From the NCBI RefSeq assembly GCF_003018255.1, contig NZ_CP027440.1: DNA of 64,000 nucleotides; one strand, 5' to 3'. Made by a program: the position numbers and the translations under genes. This stretch comes from Escherichia coli. Its GTDB lineage: Bacteria; Pseudomonadota; Gammaproteobacteria; Enterobacterales; Enterobacteriaceae. Below are positions 11,408 through 48,351 of this stretch, piece after piece. Within the stretch, counting starts at the first letter, position 1. Each line of letters starts with the position of its first letter. The notes below the pieces were generated by a model. The model saw only the letters and a list, made by a program, of their open reading frames with translations, had not been told where the DNA came from and did no database searches.

Positions 11408-13087
11408 ATGAAACAGAAAATTACGGATTACCTGGACGAAATCTACGGTGGAACATTTACCGCAACTCATTTACAGAAACTTGTAACGCGTCTTGAGAGT
11501 GCGAAACGATTAATTACACTGCGACGTAAAAAACACTGGGATGAAAGTGATGTCGTGTTAATCACCTATGCCGATCAATTTCACAGTAATGATTTAAAAC
11601 CACTACCCACATTTAATCAGTTTTACCCTCAATGGCTGCAAAGCATTTTTTCACATGTTCATTTATTACCTTTTTATCCATGGTCATCTGATGATGGCTT
11701 TTCGGTAATTGATTATCATCAGGTCGCCAGTGAAGCAGGGGAGTGGCAGGATATTCAGCAACTCGGTGATTGCAGTCATTTAATGTTTGATTTTGTCTGC
11801 AACCATATGTCGGCAAAAAGTGAATGGTTTAAAAACTATTTACAACAGCAGCCAGGTTTTGAAGATTTTTTTATTGCGGTTGATCCGCAAATCGATCTCA
11901 GCGCCGTCACCCGTCCGCGTGCGTTACCGTTATTAACGCCATTCCAGATGCGCGATAATTCAACGCGTCATTTATGGACCACCTTTAGCGACGATCAAAT
12001 TGACCTCAATTACCGTAGCCCTGAAGTGTTACTGGCGATGGTGGATGTTTTACTGTGTTACCTTGAGAAAGGTGCTGAGTATATCCGTCTGGATGCCGTT
12101 GGCTTTATGTGGAAAGAGCCGGGAACAAGCTGCATCCATCTGGAAAAAACACATCTGATTATCAAACTGTTACGGTCGATTATTGATAACGTTGCGCCAG
12201 GCACAGTGATCATTACCGAGACCAATGTTCCGCATATAGACAACATTGCTTACTTTGGCAACGGTGATGACGAAGCGCATATGGTGTACCAGTTCTCGCT
12301 GCCGCCGCTGGTGCTGCATGCGGTGCAAAAACAGAACGTTGAGGCACTTTGTGCGTGGGCGCAAAACCTGACACTACCTTCCAGCAACACCACCTGGTTT
12401 AACTTCCTTGCCTCTCACGATGGCATCGGGCTTAACCCACTGCGGGGGTTGTTGCCCGAAAACGAAATATTAGCGCTGGTCGAGGTGTTACAGCAGGAAG
12501 GGGCATTAGTAAACTGGAAAAATAATCCCGACGGTACGCGTAGCCCCTATGAAATGAATGTCACCTATATGGATGCGTTGAGCCGCCGTGAGTGTAGCGA
12601 CGAAGAACGGTGTGCCAGGTTTATTCTCGCCCATGCGATTTTGTTAAGTTTCCCCGGTGTGCCAGCGATATATATTCAAAGCATTCTGGGGTCGCGTAAT
12701 GATTACGCAGGTGTCGAAAAACTTGGATATAATCGTGCGATTAACCGTAAAAAATACTCTAGTAAAGAGATAACGACAGAACTGAACAATAAAGCGACAT
12801 TAAGGTATTTGATATATTATAAGTTGTCGCATTTAATTACACTTCGTCGCAGTCATAAAGAGTTTCATCCGGATAATAATTTCACCATTGATGCGATTAA
12901 TTCATTTGTAATGCGAATTCAAAGAAGCAATGCGGATGGCGATTGCCTGACGGGATTGTTTAATGTCAGTGAAAATATTCAGCATATAAATATTACTGAC
13001 CTGCACGGTCGGGATCTGATTAGTGAAGTTGATATATTGGGTAATGAAATAACACTGCATCCCTGGCAGGTTATGTGGATTAAATAA
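11408..13087 (+). CDS. ycjM: Glucosylglycerate phosphorylase (GH13_18 sucrose-phosphorylase-like)
   Basis: ORF 11381..13087; ATG at 11408 gives MKQKITDYLDEIYGG (559 aa); GH13 features. Confidence 0.85.
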   Translation: MKQKITDYLDEIYGGTFTATHLQKLVTRLESAKRLITLRRKKHWDESDVVLITYADQFHSNDLKPLPTFNQFYPQWLQSIFSHVHLLPFYPWSSDDGFSVIDYHQVASEAGEWQDIQQLGDCSHLMFDFVCNHMSAKSEWFKNYLQQQPGFEDFFIAVDPQIDLSAVTRPRALPLLTPFQMRDNSTRHLWTTFSDDQIDLNYRSPEVLLAMVDVLLCYLEKGAEYIRLDAVGFMWKEPGTSCIHLEKTHLIIKLLRSIIDNVAPGTVIITETNVPHIDNIAYFGNGDDEAHMVYQFSLPPLVLHAVQKQNVEALCAWAQNLTLPSSNTTWFNFLASHDGIGLNPLRGLLPENEILALVEVLQQEGALVNWKNNPDGTRSPYEMNVTYMDALSRRECSDEERCARFILAHAILLSFPGVPAIYIQSILGSRNDYAGVEKLGYNRAINRKKYSSKEITTELNNKATLRYLIYYKLSHLITLRRSHKEFHPDNNFTIDAINSFVMRIQRSNADGDCLTGLFNVSENIQHINITDLHGRDLISEVDILGNEITLHPWQVMWIK

Positions 13088-39370: not shown

Positions 39371-40123
39371 TCAGGCAACGTTACGCGTATGACCAGCAAG
39401 CTGGGCCAGCGCATCGTTATTTTCGATGGTGATGTATTTACCTTTGACTGCCAGCATACCGCTTTTCTGGAAGCGACCCAGCAGACGGCTGATGGTTTCT
39501 ACCGTCAGGCCCAGATAGTTACCAATATCGCCACGAGTCATCGTCAGGCGGAATTCACGAGGGGAGAAGCCGCGTTGGGCAAAACGACGGGACAGGTTGT
39601 AGATGAATGCAGCCAGACGTTCCTCGGCATTTTTCTTCGACAACAGCAGGATCATGTCCTGATCGCCTTTGATTTCACCGCTCATCAGACGCATCATCTG
39701 CTGACGCAGATTCGGCATTTTACCGGACAAATCGTCCAGCGTTTCGAACGGGATTTCACATACCATCGAGGTTTCCAGCGCCTGCGCGAAGCTCGGGTGA
39801 TGGCCGCTGCCGATGGCGTCAAATCCCACCAGGTCGCCTGCTAAATGGAAACCAGTGATTTGCTCGTCGCCTTGCTCAGTGATGGTATAACTTTTAATCG
39901 TACCGGAGCGGATGGCATAAAGCGATTTAAGTTCATCACCAGCCTTAAACAGCGTCTGGCCTTTCTGAATAGGCTTCTTCCGCTCAATGATATTATCAAG
40001 CTGATCAAGCTCATGTTCGTTGAGTGTGAACGGGATGCAAAGCTGGCTGATGCTGCAATCCTGGCAATGGATAGCACAACCGCCAGACTGAATGCGCCGT
40101 ATAATTCGCTTTTCCGGGATCAT
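39371..40123 (-). CDS. fnr: Global anaerobic regulator FNR (CRP/FNR family, [4Fe-4S])
   Basis: ORF 39371..40180(-); start at [29 protein letters not shown] (ATG rc 40121-40123), 250 aa; N-terminal Cys cluster. Confidence 0.93.
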
Positions 40124-40142
40124 AGGTCTGCTCAAGCCGTAA

Positions 40143-40156
40143 TTGATATTTGTCAA
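40143..40156. promoter_or_regulatory. FNR box in the fnr promoter (autoregulation)
   Basis: TTGAT-ATTT-GTCAA, one mismatch from the FNR consensus TTGAT-N4-ATCAA, 20 bp upstream of the fnr start codon. Confidence 0.65.
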
Positions 40157-40317
40157 TTTTAACATCTTTTTAGGGAGCAAGTAAGTCTAAGCAAACCTTA
40201 ACAGCAGAGAATTCCGATATTAGATGTAAATATATGTCTATCTATTTGAAAACCCTTAAGTTGTTAAGGGTAACTTTACATAAAAGTGTGAACAAGCTGG
40301 CACAAATTGTTTAATGT

Positions 40318-40833
40318 TTACAGCAAAAGATAACCTTCGTGGCGCAATAACCACTCTTTTCGCTGAACTCCGCCTGCATATCCGGTCATGGTGCCGTTTC
40401 GGCCAATAACCCGATGGCAAGGTACAACAATGCTGATGGGATTCGATCCGTTAGCCGCACCAACGGCACGCGCCGCGCCTGGGCGGCCTAATTGTTCAGC
40501 CAGTTGGCCATAATGCATTACCTGCCCGCAGGGGATAGTGCGCAGTGTTTTCCAGACTTCGCGCTGAAATGGCGTCCCCCCCGTGGCAGTGGGAAGCGTA
40601 TCAATAATGCTAAGATTACCGGCAAAATATTCACGAAGCTTGTCGCTTAAACCACCTGGGTTGGTGGCAGAAATGCGCTCATAGCCTTCTTTGCGATAAT
40701 GGATGTCCAGCAGCTGCACCATGCGTTCGCTGTACTCTTCCCATTCAACCGCCCGCAGGCGAAATTGCTCATCGCAAATCACCCACAGTGGACCCAGTGG
40801 CGTGGCAATTTTTTCTTCAAGTAATCTCAGCAT
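40318..40833 (-). CDS. ogt: Methylated-DNA--protein-cysteine methyltransferase
   Basis: 171-aa ORF with active-site motif VPCHRVIG. Confidence 0.92.
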
Positions 40834-40843
40834 CCGTTCTCTC

Positions 40844-41047
40844 TTAAGACAAACGTGGGTAAATACCCGGACCTATCGGCAGACCGACAAGATACCACGC
40901 CAGCAACATCAGCAGCCATACCACCAAAAAGATAAGCGGATAGGGCAAGACTAACGAATAGTAAGTACCCAGTTTCGCGTCTGGTTTGTCGCAGTCTGAT
41001 AGCATAAAGCGATTTTTTGATTTTTCTGCCTGAAGAAATGAGGGCAA
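40844..41047 (-). pseudogene. abgT: Probable 3' remnant of abgT (p-aminobenzoyl-glutamate transporter), last about 67 codons
   Basis: Hydrophobic TM-like 67-aa ORF ending 10 bp upstream of the ogt start, in the position and orientation of the K-12 abgT 3' end; no room for a full abgT upstream because mcaS follows at 41211. Confidence 0.4.
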
Positions 41048-41210
41048 GCCATCACATGGATCGAGGGTGGGATAATTCCAGTCAGCGAAATTTTACCGTA
41101 GGCTATCTGTTATTTGATTCTGTGGCGTGATAGCCGCCAGACACCACTGATCTCGTCACTCATTCCCCAATCCCGGCGAGAATGTGGTTATTTACAGAGC
41201 TAAAAAATGA

Positions 41211-41306
41211 ATAAAAAAATAGAGCCTGTCGACATCCGCCAGACTCTACAGTACACACAGCAGTGCATCCTCGTCTTAAATCCGGCCTGGGGTCCTGGTG
41301 ACCGGT
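41211..41306 (-). ncRNA. mcaS: McaS (IsrA) small regulatory RNA
   Basis: Minus-strand sequence ACCGGTCACCAGGACCCCAGGCCGGATTTAAGACGAGGATGCACTGCTGTGTGTACTGTAGAGTCTGGCGGATGTCGACAGGCTCTATTTTTTTAT matches recalled McaS, including GGA motifs and a terminator hairpin with U-tract. Confidence 0.8.
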
Positions 41307-41376
41307 GACAGTGTTATAACGGTTTTACCCATCCGTTGCCAATTTTCTTCAGTGACAGATTTCACGAAAATATAAG

Positions 41377-42192
41377 TTAAATCATTTGCCTTGTGATTGC
41401 ATAATCATGCATCGTTAATCGACGAGTAAATTTACCGGGCGAGTAGCCCGTTCGACGCTTAAACATATTGCCGAACGATTCAGCTGAGGCATAGCCCAGA
41501 CGATGGGCAATTTTGGTCAACGAATATCCATCATCAAGAAGCGTCACTGCAGAAATAACGTGCATTTGCTGAACCCAGTGGCGAAATGTTAATCCCGTCT
41601 CTTTAACAAATAAGCGCATGAGTGTACGGCTACTGACGTTAATTTTATCCGCTAGATTATCCAGTGTTGGCAGATACCCTTGGTTGTTTAGCAAATTCTC
41701 ACAAAGCTGCTGTAGCCGCTCATCATTTGGCCAAGGGAGTTCAAGTGACATTTTCACCCCCATTTTTATTTCCTGAAGTATCAGTGTCTCGAGGGCTGAA
41801 AAACGTAACTGTTGTTTATCTGTGGTACTTTGCGACGGTGGAAGTTGGTTAATTGCAATTAGTAATTCTCTTAACAGGGGTGAAATACCCGTCATGAAGC
41901 AAACTTTTCCCAGCGTTTCACTTTCCGCTTCTGAAACCAGTACGGTTTTTAAAAGTACGTTGCCTGTCGCAACAAACTTATGCGGCATTTGTGGGGGCAG
42001 CCAAAGCGCGCTGCTGGCATGCACTAGCCAGACGCTTTCTCCAGCCCATAGACGAACGACTCCTTCAGCCGGGTAAAGCAACTGGGCATAGAGATGTTTA
42101 TGCCAGGGAACTGTGCCTCCATTCAGATGTTCCGAATCCAGTCCGATAATGTGATGCCCTGGTGATGCTTTGGGTTGCAGTGTGATTGTCAT
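41377..42192 (-). CDS. AraC/XylS-family transcriptional regulator (cupin-like N-domain + double HTH)
   Basis: 271-aa ORF; C-terminal AraC HTH region (...SRTLMRLFVKETGLTFRHWVQQMHV...LGYASAESFGNMFKRRTGYSPGKF); divergent from the efflux genes. Confidence 0.8.
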   Translation of the reverse strand: MTITLQPKASPGHHIIGLDSEHLNGGTVPWHKHLYAQLLYPAEGVVRLWAGESVWLVHASSALWLPPQMPHKFVATGNVLLKTVLVSEAESETLGKVCFMTGISPLLRELLIAINQLPPSQSTTDKQQLRFSALETLILQEIKMGVKMSLELPWPNDERLQQLCENLLNNQGYLPTLDNLADKINVSSRTLMRLFVKETGLTFRHWVQQMHVISAVTLLDDGYSLTKIAHRLGYASAESFGNMFKRRTGYSPGKFTRRLTMHDYAITRQMI

Positions 42193-42285
42193 TTACAGTA
42201 GGTATTTTGTCAGAAATCATCAAATAAGCCATGTTAAATTTTAAATATGGCGAATGCAAGTTTCCGGATATATACGGTGTAAAGA

Positions 42286-43317
42286 GTGATGATAATTTCT
42301 AAAAAACAGCTTATTGGGGTAGTAGCGATCGGTATTATTTTGGCTGGCGTTGTCTTTTTTATCTGGTGGGTAAGCAAAGGAAGATTTATACAGACGACGG
42401 ATGATGCTTACATTGGTGGTAATATTACCACGGTGGCAAGTAAAGTTTCTGGTTATATTTCTGCTATAGAGGTGCGTGATAATCAGAGCGTAAAAAAAGG
42501 CGATATTATCCTGCGTCTCGATGATCGGGATTATCGTGCAAATGTCGCCAGGCTTGAGGCAAAAATAAAAAGTAGAAAAGCCAATCTCGAAAGCATTCAA
42601 GCCACTATTACGATGCAGCAGTCGATAATTCAAAGTGCCAGTGAAACATGGCAGGCAGTAAAACATGAGGAGCAAAAGCGCCTGCGAGATACTGAACGTT
42701 ATGAAAAACTCGTACAATCAGCGGCAATATCGCAGCAAATTATTGATAACGCCAGGTTTGACTACCAGCAGGTCGCAGCAAAGGAGCGCAAAGCCGCGAA
42801 CGATTTCCTGGTGGAGAAGCAACGGCTGGCAGTTTTATCTGCTCAGGAAGAAAACGTACGTGCGAGTATCGAAGAAGTTCAGGCCGCTTTGACTCAGGCA
42901 CTACTGGATCTGGAATATACCCTTGTTCGTGCGCCGATTGATGGCATTGTCGCAAACCGCAGCGCCCATACAGGCAGTTGGGTGGAAGGCGGCACATCGT
43001 TAGTTTCACTTGTACCAGTCAGTGAGTTGTGGGTTGATGCAAATTATAAAGAAAACCAAATAGCGGGAATGAAGCCAGGAATGAAGGCTGAGATCCGTGC
43101 TGATATTCTCAAAGGGGAAGTGTTTCACGGTCACATTGAAAGCCTTTCCCCAGCGACAGGAGCCAGTTTCAGCTTGATTCCGATAGAAAATGCCACTGGC
43201 AATTTCACCAAAATTGTTCAGCGTGTCCCGGTACGGATTGCATTTGACGACGCAAAGGAATTAAAGCAACTTCTTCGCCCGGGACTGTCCGTCACCGTCA
43301 GTGTCGATGAGAGATGA
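42286..43317 (+). CDS. HlyD-family membrane fusion protein (EmrA-like periplasmic adaptor)
   Basis: 343-aa ORF with N-terminal TM anchor (VAIGIILAGVVFFIWW), coiled coil, and HlyD motifs (GDIILRLDDRDY ... LEYTLVRAPIDGIV). Confidence 0.8.
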   Translation: MMIISKKQLIGVVAIGIILAGVVFFIWWVSKGRFIQTTDDAYIGGNITTVASKVSGYISAIEVRDNQSVKKGDIILRLDDRDYRANVARLEAKIKSRKANLESIQATITMQQSIIQSASETWQAVKHEEQKRLRDTERYEKLVQSAAISQQIIDNARFDYQQVAAKERKAANDFLVEKQRLAVLSAQEENVRASIEEVQAALTQALLDLEYTLVRAPIDGIVANRSAHTGSWVEGGTSLVSLVPVSELWVDANYKENQIAGMKPGMKAEIRADILKGEVFHGHIESLSPATGASFSLIPIENATGNFTKIVQRVPVRIAFDDAKELKQLLRPGLSVTVSVDER

Positions 43318-44828
43318 TGTCTATGCGTAAACATATTGCTTTCGCCAGTATGTGTATGGGATTATTTATTGCTCAGCTTGATATTCAAATTGTATCGTCA
43401 TCCCTAAATGAAATAGGTGGTGGTCTGTCCGCAGGTAAAGACGAAATGGCCTGGCTTCAGACCAGCTATTTAATTGCTGAGATTATTGTTATTCCGCTCT
43501 CTGGGTGGCTGTCACGGGTATTTTCCACTCGTTGGCTTTTTACTCTATCCGCGGGAATATTTACTTTAATGAGTATCGCGTGTGGACTTGCATGGAATAT
43601 TCAGATCATGATTTTGTTTCGTGCTTTACAGGGAGCGGCTGGCGCATCCATGATCCCTTTAGTTTTCACGACGGCGTTTATTTATTACCAGGGTAAAGAG
43701 TTGGGGTCGGCTGCTGCGGTAGTCAGTGCGCTGGCCTCACTGTCACCGACGCTAGGGCCAACTCTGGGGGGCTGGATCACTGATAACCTCGACTGGCGAT
43801 GGCTATTTTATATCAATATATTACCTGGCATATATTTAGTTTTGAGTATTCCTTTTCTGGTTAATTTTGATAAACCTGATCTCTCTTTACTGAAAGTTGC
43901 TGATTATCCGAGTATTATCCTGTTGGCCATGACACTGGGATGTCTGGAATATACCCTTGAAGAAGGAGCGCGCTGGGGATGGCTGGATGATAATACTATT
44001 TTGCTGACATCAGTTCTGGCATTGGTGAGTTTTATTTTATTTGCTGCGCGTACACTTACAATATCCAATCCGATAATGGATCTTCATGCTTTTAAGGATA
44101 AAAATTTCACGCTGGGATGTTTTTTTTCTTTTTCTGGAGGGGTTGGGATATTCTCTACTGTATATTTAATACTTGTGTTTTTGGGGCAGGTTCGCGGATT
44201 AAATGCCGAAGAGATAGGTTTTGCCGTTTGCACAACAGGTATTTTCCAGTTATTTTCTGTTCCCTTTTACTTCTGGTTAAGTAAAAAAATAAATCTGCGA
44301 TGGCTGTTGATGGCGGGGCTGGGTGGATTTGTGTTTTCAATGTATCTTTTTACCCCTATAACCCACGAATGGGGATGGCAGGAGTTACTGTTTCCACAGG
44401 CAATTAGAGGGATTTCGCAGCAGTTTGCGATGGCCCCCATCGTAACATTAACGCTGGGGGGAATTCCAAAGGAACGGCTGAAGTTAGCCTCTGGTGTATT
44501 TAATTTAACACGTAATCTTGGGGGCGCGATTGGTATTGCCCTGTGTGGCTCTATTCTCAATAATCGAACTAATTTTCATTTTTCGAGAATGGGTGAAAAA
44601 ATGGTTTCTGTTCCCCATACGGTGAATGACTTCATTTCCAGAAGTGCTTTGTTTTTTAATCGCAGTGGAAGTGACCAGACATCGGAAATACTGGCTTCAA
44701 CCAAATTATTGAGTCAGTTGATGCTGAGGGAGGCGCAAACTATGGCATTTTCGGATACCTTTCTGCTAATCAGTGGTCTGTTATTTATCGCATTTTTGTT
44801 GGTTCCTGCTATGAATAAATCATCCTGA
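43314..44828 (+). CDS. MFS transporter, DHA2 (EmrB/QacA-like, about 14 TMS) drug/metabolite exporter
   Basis: 504-aa polytopic ORF overlapping the HlyD stop by 4 nt; MFS signature region (GWLSRVFSTRW ... LFRALQGAAGASMIP). Confidence 0.8.
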   Translation: MMSMRKHIAFASMCMGLFIAQLDIQIVSSSLNEIGGGLSAGKDEMAWLQTSYLIAEIIVIPLSGWLSRVFSTRWLFTLSAGIFTLMSIACGLAWNIQIMILFRALQGAAGASMIPLVFTTAFIYYQGKELGSAAAVVSALASLSPTLGPTLGGWITDNLDWRWLFYINILPGIYLVLSIPFLVNFDKPDLSLLKVADYPSIILLAMTLGCLEYTLEEGARWGWLDDNTILLTSVLALVSFILFAARTLTISNPIMDLHAFKDKNFTLGCFFSFSGGVGIFSTVYLILVFLGQVRGLNAEEIGFAVCTTGIFQLFSVPFYFWLSKKINLRWLLMAGLGGFVFSMYLFTPITHEWGWQELLFPQAIRGISQQFAMAPIVTLTLGGIPKERLKLASGVFNLTRNLGGAIGIALCGSILNNRTNFHFSRMGEKMVSVPHTVNDFISRSALFFNRSGSDQTSEILASTKLLSQLMLREAQTMAFSDTFLLISGLLFIAFLLVPAMNKSS

Positions 44829-45022
44829 TCGGAGCCTGTGCTGAATTAAACTCGGGCTAAACTGTTCGATACTGCTAACAGGCTAGTATAAAATGCCCCG
44901 CCTGCGCAGATACTCACAGGTATGAAGTAGAGTATTGTTTCAATCTGTGAAGGGAACGATGCAGTAAGAATGAACAATTAACCCGTCTGAATCACGACGT
45001 GTGAAGGTGCATAGGAGGTTAC

Positions 45023-45586
45023 ATGAACCTTGACGACAAATCGCTGTTTCTTGACGCCATGGAAGATGTCCAGCCGCTGAAACGTGCTACAGATGTCCAC
45101 TGGCATCCAACGCGTAACCAACGTGCGCCGCAGCGTATCGACACGCTGCAACTTGATAATTTCCTCACCACCGGATTTCTCGACATCATCCCGCTAAGTC
45201 AGCCGCTGGAGTTTCGGCGGGAAGGGTTGCAACATGGGGTGCTGGATAAGCTGCGCAGTGGTAAATATCCGCAACAGGCGAGCCTGAATCTTTTGCGCCA
45301 GCCGGTGGAAGAGTGCCGCAAAATGATGTTCAGTTTCATTCAACAAGCCATGGCGGATGGTTTGCGTAACGTGCTGATTATTCATGGTAAAGGGCGGGAT
45401 GATAAATCGCATGCCAATATTGTCCGCAGCTATGTGGCGCGCTGGCTGACCGAATTTGATGATGTTCAGGCATATTGCACCGCGCTACCGCATCATGGCG
45501 GCAGCGGGGCGTGTTACGTCGCACTACGTAAAACGGCGCAGGCGAAGCAAGAAAACTGGGAGCGCCACGCTAAGCGCAGCCGTTGA
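45023..45586 (+). CDS. smrA: Smr-domain DNA endonuclease SmrA (YdaL)
   Basis: 187-aa ORF MNLDDKSLFLDAMEDVQPLKRATDVHWHPT; Smr domain (LIIHGKG). Confidence 0.88.
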   Translation: MNLDDKSLFLDAMEDVQPLKRATDVHWHPTRNQRAPQRIDTLQLDNFLTTGFLDIIPLSQPLEFRREGLQHGVLDKLRSGKYPQQASLNLLRQPVEECRKMMFSFIQQAMADGLRNVLIIHGKGRDDKSHANIVRSYVARWLTEFDDVQAYCTALPHHGGSGACYVALRKTAQAKQENWERHAKRSR

Positions 45587-48077: not shown

Positions 48078-48351
48078 CAAAAGCAATTTTCCCGGCTGTC
48101 TGTATACAAAAACGCCGCAAAGTTTGAGCGAAGTCAATAAACTCTCTACCCATTCAGGGCAATATCTCTCTTGCAGGTGAATGCAACGTCAAGCGATGGG
48201 CGTTGCGCTCCATATTGTCTTACTTCCTTTTTTGAATTACTGCATAGCACAATTGATTCGTACGACGCCGACTTTGATGAGTCGGCTTTTTTTTGCCTGT
48301 TATTTGTCAGCGTCTACCCTTTAAGAGTCCACCCAATGACCGGAGGGAAAT

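Follow-up and report, generated by a model that had tools for sequence, protein, structure and literature searches.

An accessory AraC-HlyD-MFS cassette between mcaS and smrA in Escherichia coli: a probable exporter of the EmrAB type

Introduction

In Escherichia coli K-12, the gene order ogt-abgT-abgB-abgA-abgR-mcaS-smrA leaves no gene between mcaS, which encodes the small RNA (sRNA) McaS, and smrA. In another E. coli genome (assembly GCF_003018255.1, contig NZ_CP027440.1), of which a stretch of 64,000 nt was analysed (the whole of this stretch is called 'the window' below), this site is occupied by a cassette of three genes that encode an AraC-family regulator, a HlyD-family adaptor and a transporter of the major facilitator superfamily (MFS). 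The questions raised by this locus are how the cassette came to lie between two core genes and whether it makes a working efflux pump. The cassette is an uncharacterized accessory paralogue of a well-known class of pumps, and the sequences, the structural models and the analogy with characterized systems indicate that it probably encodes a self-contained, horizontally acquired pump of the EmrAB type, an inducible tripartite MFS exporter under NimR-like control that employs TolC.

The genes of the cassette and their products

The original prediction for this DNA, made from the sequence alone, described a regulator gene divergent from a translationally coupled pair of genes for an adaptor and a transporter, all located between McaS and smrA. 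Intact open reading frames (ORFs) are present for each of the three genes at the predicted coordinates, in the interval delimited by McaS (41211-41306) and smrA (from 45023), and the ORF listing together with the intergenic region gives the following layout:

41377-42192, minus strand: AraC-family regulator, 271 amino acids
42193-42288: intergenic control region between the divergent genes, 96 bp
42286/42289-43317, plus strand: EmrA-like adaptor of the HlyD family, 342-343 amino acids
43314-44828, plus strand: DHA2 MFS transporter, 504 amino acids, with all 504 codons intact

The adaptor gene starts at ATG 42289 in RefSeq, with GTG 42286 as the alternative, and the coupling to the transporter gene is apparent in the sequence ATGA, where the adaptor stop codon TGA (43315-43317) overlaps the transporter start codon ATG (43314-43316).

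The transporter scores 397.5 bits on the TIGR00711 profile, for which the cut-off is 230.2, with residues 9-496 aligned to positions 3-480 of 485, and it also matches Pfam MFS_1. It is colinear with orthologues of 505 amino acids at 82% identity, and its best relatives of solved structure are the EmrB chains of the cryo-EM entries 8zal and 8zar (E = 6.6e-54, residues 12-489). The AlphaFold model, computed with 33 homologues (predicted local distance difference test score 82.8, predicted template modelling score 0.82), superposes on EmrB (8zal_J) with Foldseek TM-scores of 0.88/0.89 over 504 columns at 26% sequence identity; the next Foldseek matches are the 14-helix transporters QacA and EfpA. 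A crude hydropathy scan yields 12 clear peaks and additional amphipathic segments, and the predicted 14-helix DHA2 topology is upheld by the profile match and by the superposition of the model on EmrB.

Antiporters of this kind are recognized by motif C (G-x-x-x-G-P-x-x-G-G), which lies in helix 5, and by an acidic residue that helix 1 places within the membrane. The transporter sequence reads ...LSPTLGPTLGGW..., with G148, P149, G152, G153 and D23 invariant in the 33 homologues; the same invariance, down to 51% identity, extends over the antiporter motif LGPTLGG and to E56 and R103. By analogy with the characterized members of the family, the protein is predicted to be a drug/H+ antiporter.

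The adaptor contains the Pfam domains HlyD_D23, HlyD_3 and Biotin_lipoyl_2 and scores 134.4 bits on TIGR01730 (cut-off 94.9), and its best match in the PDB is EmrA (8zar, E = 9.6e-43, residues 6-341 aligned with 20-346). It has a single N-terminal hydrophobic helix (residues 8-26), which, along with the alignment to EmrA, suggests a membrane-anchored protein, not a lipoprotein, with lipoyl, hairpin and beta-barrel parts. The HlyD adaptor of the original prediction is thereby specified as an EmrA-like protein with one membrane helix.

The regulator, predicted to belong to the AraC family, has the architecture typical of AraC/XylS proteins, an N-terminal cupin sensor (AraC_binding, E = 5.8e-8; Cupin_2, E = 1.3e-6) and a C-terminal double helix-turn-helix (HTH) domain (HTH_18, E = 1.4e-21, residues 180-258). 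Searches found no close relative of it that is solved or named. In a tblastn comparison, the K-12 nimR gene product is 46% identical to it over the HTH domain and 31% identical over the cupin domain. Regulators that are 37-44% identical to it, in Acinetobacter and one other genome, are likewise encoded divergently from an MFS gene, so that the pairing of a divergent regulator with an exporter is kept from Escherichia to these distant homologues.

The 96-bp region between the divergent genes (42193-42288) contains blocks that are conserved from Escherichia to Hafnia; in an alignment of five loci, the conserved sequence reads TTGnCA...ATCATCA...CATGnTAAnTTTT...TGCAA. No riboswitch or leader RNA was found in the 5' region of the operon, a permissive Rfam scan having returned McaS alone.

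Insertion into the spacer between mcaS and smrA

The comparison with K-12 by BLAST defines the boundaries of the cassette. The window matches K-12 at 98% identity over 40034-40992, through 149 bp of the 3' end of abgT, and at 81% over 40992-41412, a segment made up of 214 bp from the 3' end of abgR, of mcaS and of the region upstream of mcaS; the match resumes at 45013, 10 bp before the smrA ATG, at 99%. Accordingly, 3,600 bp of the window (41413-45012) take the place of 111 bp in K-12, and the K-12 locus agrees with the map given in the original prediction, in which abgR, mcaS and smrA are adjacent. The features around the two junctions are:

41307-41412, minus strand: backbone shared with K-12 at 86.8% identity, with the mcaS promoter region and the last 12 codons of the AraC-family gene
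44829-45012, no strand: spacer of 184 bp, absent from K-12 as well as from the other genera's cassettes, which replaces the native DNA upstream of smrA
45023-45586, plus strand: smrA, a core gene (RefSeq), which starts 194 bp 3' of the stop codon of the MFS gene

At the left junction, K-12 homology stops at 41412, and DNA homology to the cassettes of other genera starts at 41415-41427; on the right side, the latter homology stops at 44813-44819. The regulators of other genera consist of 261-262 amino acids, compared with 271 in the Escherichia copy, which has a C-terminal extension of 11 residues: the ORF has no stop codon where the orthologues end and runs 11-12 codons into the backbone DNA (41377-41412). 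A loss of the cassette from K-12 was considered, with the 36 bp of K-12 that resemble the last 12 codons of the regulator gene as a remnant, and was rejected in favour of insertion. Because the orthologous regulators end before this tail and the homology to other cassettes begins where that to K-12 ends, the sequences argue against loss in K-12 and for insertion of the cassette into a pre-existing mcaS-smrA spacer.

The composition of the cassette is atypical relative to its surroundings, as the original prediction had noted in calling it AT-rich. The GC content is 44.2% for the cassette and 49.3% for the window; that of the individual genes is 0.42-0.46, compared with 0.49-0.54 for the flanking genes, and at third codon positions 0.40-0.42, compared with 0.49-0.59 in uspE, fnr, ogt, smrA, dgcM and zntB (the ORFs of the region follow each other in the order uspE, fnr, ogt, the three cassette genes, smrA, dgcM, zntB). 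No direct or inverted repeats and no target duplication were found at the cassette ends, the ORF listing has no mobility gene of the integrase or transposase type within 40.8-45.1 kb, and the Rfam scan detected no structured RNA in the insert. Carriage by a plasmid or phage finds no support: among the Enterobacterales in PLSDB there is no genuine plasmid copy, the matches being limited to two large E. coli records, one of which is chromosome-sized (4.9 Mb).

Within the species, the cassette is present at 80% completeness or more in 1,316 of the 5,426 complete E. coli genomes (24%), and any part of it in 1,457. It is absent from K-12 and from O157:H7, O111 and O155 strains; the recognizable carriers are O25b:H4-ST131 (sequence type 131), S88, F11, avian pathogenic E. 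coli (APEC) O2:K1, O78:H4 strains and a strain named ST38, which we take to belong to phylogroups B2, D, F and G. The protein sequence of the transporter of the window recurs, identically, on 61 contigs of the public collection. Since the cassette is missing at this site in relatives, is low in GC and occurs in other contexts in other genera, it is horizontally acquired accessory DNA, and the accessory status proposed originally holds.

The cassette in other genera

Outside Escherichia, the nearest transporters are 80-83% identical proteins of 505 amino acids from Citrobacter freundii, Kluyvera, Hafnia alvei, Pluralibacter, Yokenella, Salmonella enterica subsp. salamae and others. Every such locus that was examined has the same three genes in the same order among unrelated neighbours. 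A unit of 3.56 kb is 99% identical in two unrelated contexts, and Hafnia provides a third context. The cassettes of Citrobacter, Kluyvera, Hafnia, Pluralibacter, subsp. salamae and others share with that of the window the genes, their order and orientation, 78-82% protein identity and the intergenic blocks, but differ from it in their chromosomal sites and in the regulator, which lacks the 11-residue tail. All these orthologous cassettes are uncharacterized. Where the ratio of nonsynonymous to synonymous substitution rates (dN/dS) could be computed between genera, it is 0.04-0.08 for all three genes, which shows purifying selection between genera.

More distant relatives bear on the pairing of the two pump genes and on the export route. 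Relatives about 61% identical (P0111, P0114, P0116, P0118) are single polypeptides of 866-867 amino acids in which adaptor and MFS transporter are fused; such fusions independently attest to a joint action of the two proteins. In Paraburkholderia, where the transporter is 51-52% identical, a gene for a channel of the NodT family (TIGR01845, 272 bits against 210) lies directly downstream. These adaptor-DHA2-NodT operons of Paraburkholderia and Burkholderia resemble the cassette in the transporter and in the EmrA-like adaptor but differ from it in having an outer-membrane channel gene of their own; where the regulator gene would be expected, no AraC/cupin protein was identified.

A probable EmrAB-type exporter and its alternatives

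The closest characterized model of the pump is EmrAB-TolC of K-12 (8zal, 8zar). In both systems, a gene for a membrane-anchored HlyD-family adaptor precedes a gene for a 14-helix DHA2 transporter, and neither has a linked outer-membrane gene. The differences are that the adaptor of the cassette is about 47 residues shorter than EmrA and that the cassette is accessory and has a divergent AraC/cupin regulator, whereas emrAB is core and is controlled by the MarR-type regulator EmrR. No outer-membrane channel gene is present in this cassette or in the other enterobacterial cassettes examined, while the Paraburkholderia relatives have an adjacent NodT gene, and because of this difference it is reasonable to infer that the cassette relies on TolC.

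For the regulation, the model is NimR. This regulator is reported to be a single-target factor of the divergent exporter pair yeaM/yeaN (nimR/nimT) and to bind solely the intergenic region of that pair (PMC5934670). In K-12 as in the cassette, the regulator gene is divergent from the gene of an MFS exporter, and the two regulators are homologous in the cupin and HTH domains; the difference lies in the exporter, NimT being a 12-helix protein of 393 amino acids, compared with a 14-helix DHA2 transporter plus adaptor in the cassette. The 2-nitroimidazole specificity of NimR-NimT is not transferable because the identity is too low.

On these analogies, the cassette would consist of a two-gene operon for the adaptor and the coupled transporter, divergent from a NimR-like regulator. 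As in EmrAB-TolC, a small hydrophobic or amphipathic molecule would be picked up by the transporter in the cytoplasm or the inner membrane, the adaptor would form a tube through the periplasm, and the chromosomally encoded TolC would provide the exit through the outer membrane. From its site in the 96-bp intergenic region, the regulator would control the operon, sensing through its cupin domain the substrate or a related compound; the ligand-bound form might then either switch the operon on or release it. If active, this would be the third tripartite MFS pump of the EmrAB type in E. coli, after EmrAB and EmrKY. It would be found in major extraintestinal lineages such as ST131 and missing in K-12, in which almost all of the biology of efflux has been studied, and it could add to the intrinsic tolerance of clinical strains to some class of compounds.

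Several observations weigh against this reading. Full-text literature searches, one of them swamped by unrelated matches, returned no paper on this locus. A promoter scan of 42193-42288 gave only weak matches to the consensus on both strands. The adaptor reaches 266.7 bits on TIGR00998 (EmrA/EmrK), below the cut-off of 390.8, although the alignment runs from end to end (7-340 against profile positions 2-334), and the transporter reaches 212.3 bits on the EmrB-specific NF000391, for which the cut-off is 925. The transporter is a paralogue of EmrB, not EmrB proper, and because both specific cut-offs are missed, the substrate range of EmrAB is not transferable to the cassette.

The remaining adverse observations concern decay. 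ST73-type probiotic and reference strains, namely Nissle 1917 (L024 3377-4006), ATCC 25922-type strains and M-17, keep the regulator, but a deletion of 1.85 kb has joined the beginning of their adaptor gene directly to the final part of the MFS gene. Other E. coli cassettes are interrupted by IS1, one MFS allele of 388 amino acids has an in-frame deletion, one lineage has G148E in the antiporter motif, and the MFS gene is frameshifted in alleles labelled Shigella and has a true frameshift in a genome labelled E. coli E69 (L017). The MFS allele of the window has two substitutions that are private relative to all other E. coli copies examined, L132S (43708) and P287L (44173), the latter at a proline that EmrB and at least 90% of the 33 homologues share; this allele, and with it the pump of this strain, may be impaired. 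The dN/dS of the MFS gene within E. coli, derived from small counts, is 0.30-0.47, compared with 0.04-0.07 between genera. Judging by these alleles, the pump appears to be dispensable in E. coli and to decay often.

Taken to their limit, the independent inactivating events in several lineages, the raised dN/dS and the two substitutions in the window would make the cassette in E. coli, or perhaps in this strain, a decaying relic, acquired once, no longer under effective selection and now non-functional or silent, with only the reading frames surviving, the more so as H-NS commonly silences AT-rich DNA of foreign origin in E. coli. This is unlikely, if the most serious of the alternatives. The window and the four further E. 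coli loci checked in full (L001, L002, L004, L005) have three intact ORFs each, and the MFS ORF is also intact at an ST131 locus (L025); the genes for the regulator and the adaptor have dN/dS values of 0.10-0.18 within Escherichia; dN/dS within a species is normally inflated by segregating mutations; and of the 1,457 genomes with at least a part of the cassette, 1,316 retain 80% or more.

An active exporter could, alternatively, serve not against external toxic compounds but for the secretion of something that the carrier strains make themselves, a product or signal such as a siderophore, microcin, toxin precursor or metabolite. The bias of the recognizable carriers towards extraintestinal lineages (ST131, S88, F11, APEC) would suit this possibility, given that such lineages make many secondary products and that EmrAB-type and other MFS pumps export endogenous metabolites. 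Yet no biosynthetic genes lie beside the cassette in any of the four contexts inspected (E. coli, the Citrobacter/Kluyvera type, L009 and Hafnia), the neighbours are wholly different, and a dedicated local sensor-regulator is better suited to inducible detoxification, which makes endogenous export very unlikely. The neighbouring genes, which are not conserved between contexts, give no clue to the substrate either. The link to biofilm or stress physiology that the original prediction had suggested on account of mcaS and dgcM rested on adjacency; the other genera have different neighbourhoods, and the suggestion finds no support.

That the adaptor and transporter deliver their substrate to the periplasm only is least probable of all: the enterobacterial cassettes do lack a gene for an outer-membrane factor, but so do E. 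coli emrAB and emrKY, which use TolC, the alignment of the adaptor with EmrA is almost complete and takes in the long hairpin of helices that touches TolC in the EmrAB-TolC structure, and the more distant relatives carry a NodT channel of their own.

The RefSeq label of the MFS gene

The MFS gene is labelled 'frameshifted' by RefSeq in all six E. coli genomes inspected. Five of these genomes have a full-length gene, for which the annotated feature measures 1,456 nt; in the window, it ends at a +1-frame TAA (44767-44769) that follows ...IPFC. A true frameshift was considered and rejected: the ORF of 504 codons is colinear with the 505-residue orthologues to the last helix and to the end of TIGR00711, and all five full-length E. 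coli genes so labelled have an open frame of 504 codons. Proteins of 484 and 488 amino acids labelled Shigella flexneri (WP_162471458.1 type, one of them a WP_ reference) end in ...AFSVPFC, at this same +1-frame stop, as a result of a 1-nt deletion. An intact gene can be aligned with such a truncated Shigella protein only by introducing a frameshift, and the RefSeq label looks like an artefact of the truncated reference. Owing to this label, the transporter has no protein record in the six RefSeq E. coli records examined, and protein-based analyses of the pangenome, the resistome or genome-wide associations that use such records would miss it; correction of the label is a concrete and cheap outcome.

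A K-12 MG1655 assembly, NZ_CP025268.1 (L023), has nimR (11570-12390), ogt and yeaH flagged as 'frameshifted'; the likely causes are errors in that assembly or variants of its strain, and such flags illustrate that RefSeq pseudogene labels need checking.

Neighbouring core genes

The core DNA on the abgT side of the cassette has been altered as well, a point absent from the original prediction. The features outside the cassette are:

40318-40833, minus strand: ogt (ORF listing)
40844-40991, minus strand: 3' remnant of abgT, 148 bp, 98.6% identical to the K-12 abgT 3' end, annotated in RefSeq as a partial AbgT pseudogene
40992-41205, plus strand: 3' remnant of abgR, 214 bp, annotated in RefSeq as frameshifted with an internal stop
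41211-41306, minus strand: McaS sRNA gene, full length in Rfam RF00115 (112.8 bits, gathering score 42)
48173-48290, plus strand: FnrS sRNA (Rfam RF01796, 134.8 bits), downstream of zntB as in K-12

A deletion of about 5 kb has removed abgT-abgB-abgA-abgR, with the junction at 40991/40992, such that only the two remnants lie between ogt and mcaS. The same junction is present in 1,171 of the 5,426 complete E. coli genomes and in E69. In strain AST20, which carries the cassette, the abg operon is intact. The abgR remnant is 76.6% identical to abgR of K-12 and AST20 and 92.5% identical to the remnant in E69. A recent deletion does not account for the contrast between this 76.6% and the 98.6% of the adjoining abgT remnant; the haplotype may be old or introgressed.

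The E69 locus, which was detected in a scan of contigs that employed a single protein, required exact peptide words and recovered 7 loci, has the same layout, abg deletion included. Because its flanks are only about 91% identical to those of the window, E69 is, by this sequence comparison, a divergent Escherichia lineage. Its cassette is 95-98% identical in most 200-bp windows, and the synonymous divergence from the window is 0.09-0.20 in the cassette, compared with 0.22-0.30 in fnr and smrA, which fits an old presence of the cassette in the genus combined with some recombinational exchange.

The McaS allele of the window differs from that of K-12 at 8 positions clustered in the first hairpin, which reads ACCGGUCACCAGGACCCCAGGCCGGA in the window and ACCGGCGCAGAGGAGACAAUGCCGGA in K-12. 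Substitutions in both arms of the stem preserve its pairing, and the loop of 12 nt has a different sequence that still contains one GGA. The same allele is present in AST20 and a near-identical one in E69, i.e. in all three cassette-bearing loci compared. The mcaS promoter region, as read from the sequence, contains the hexamers TTGGCA and TATAAC and a CRP-like site GTGA-N6-TCAC. The regulator gene, on the same strand as mcaS and 70 bp upstream of the McaS start, ends about 10 bp short of this site, in the backbone upstream of the mcaS promoter.

On the other side, only the 10 bp before the smrA ATG are common to K-12, and the 111 bp that K-12 has in front of smrA are gone. Terminator scans found no plus-strand terminator between the MFS gene and smrA. 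With the junction so close to the ATG and the terminator lacking, transcripts of the efflux operon may extend into smrA, or else smrA may have a new promoter in the 184-bp spacer. There is a slim chance that the insertion has rewired its core neighbours, with smrA, a DNA endonuclease gene, co-transcribed and co-induced with the efflux operon; carriers of the cassette would then differ from the other strains in the McaS target or CsrA interactions and in the control of smrA.

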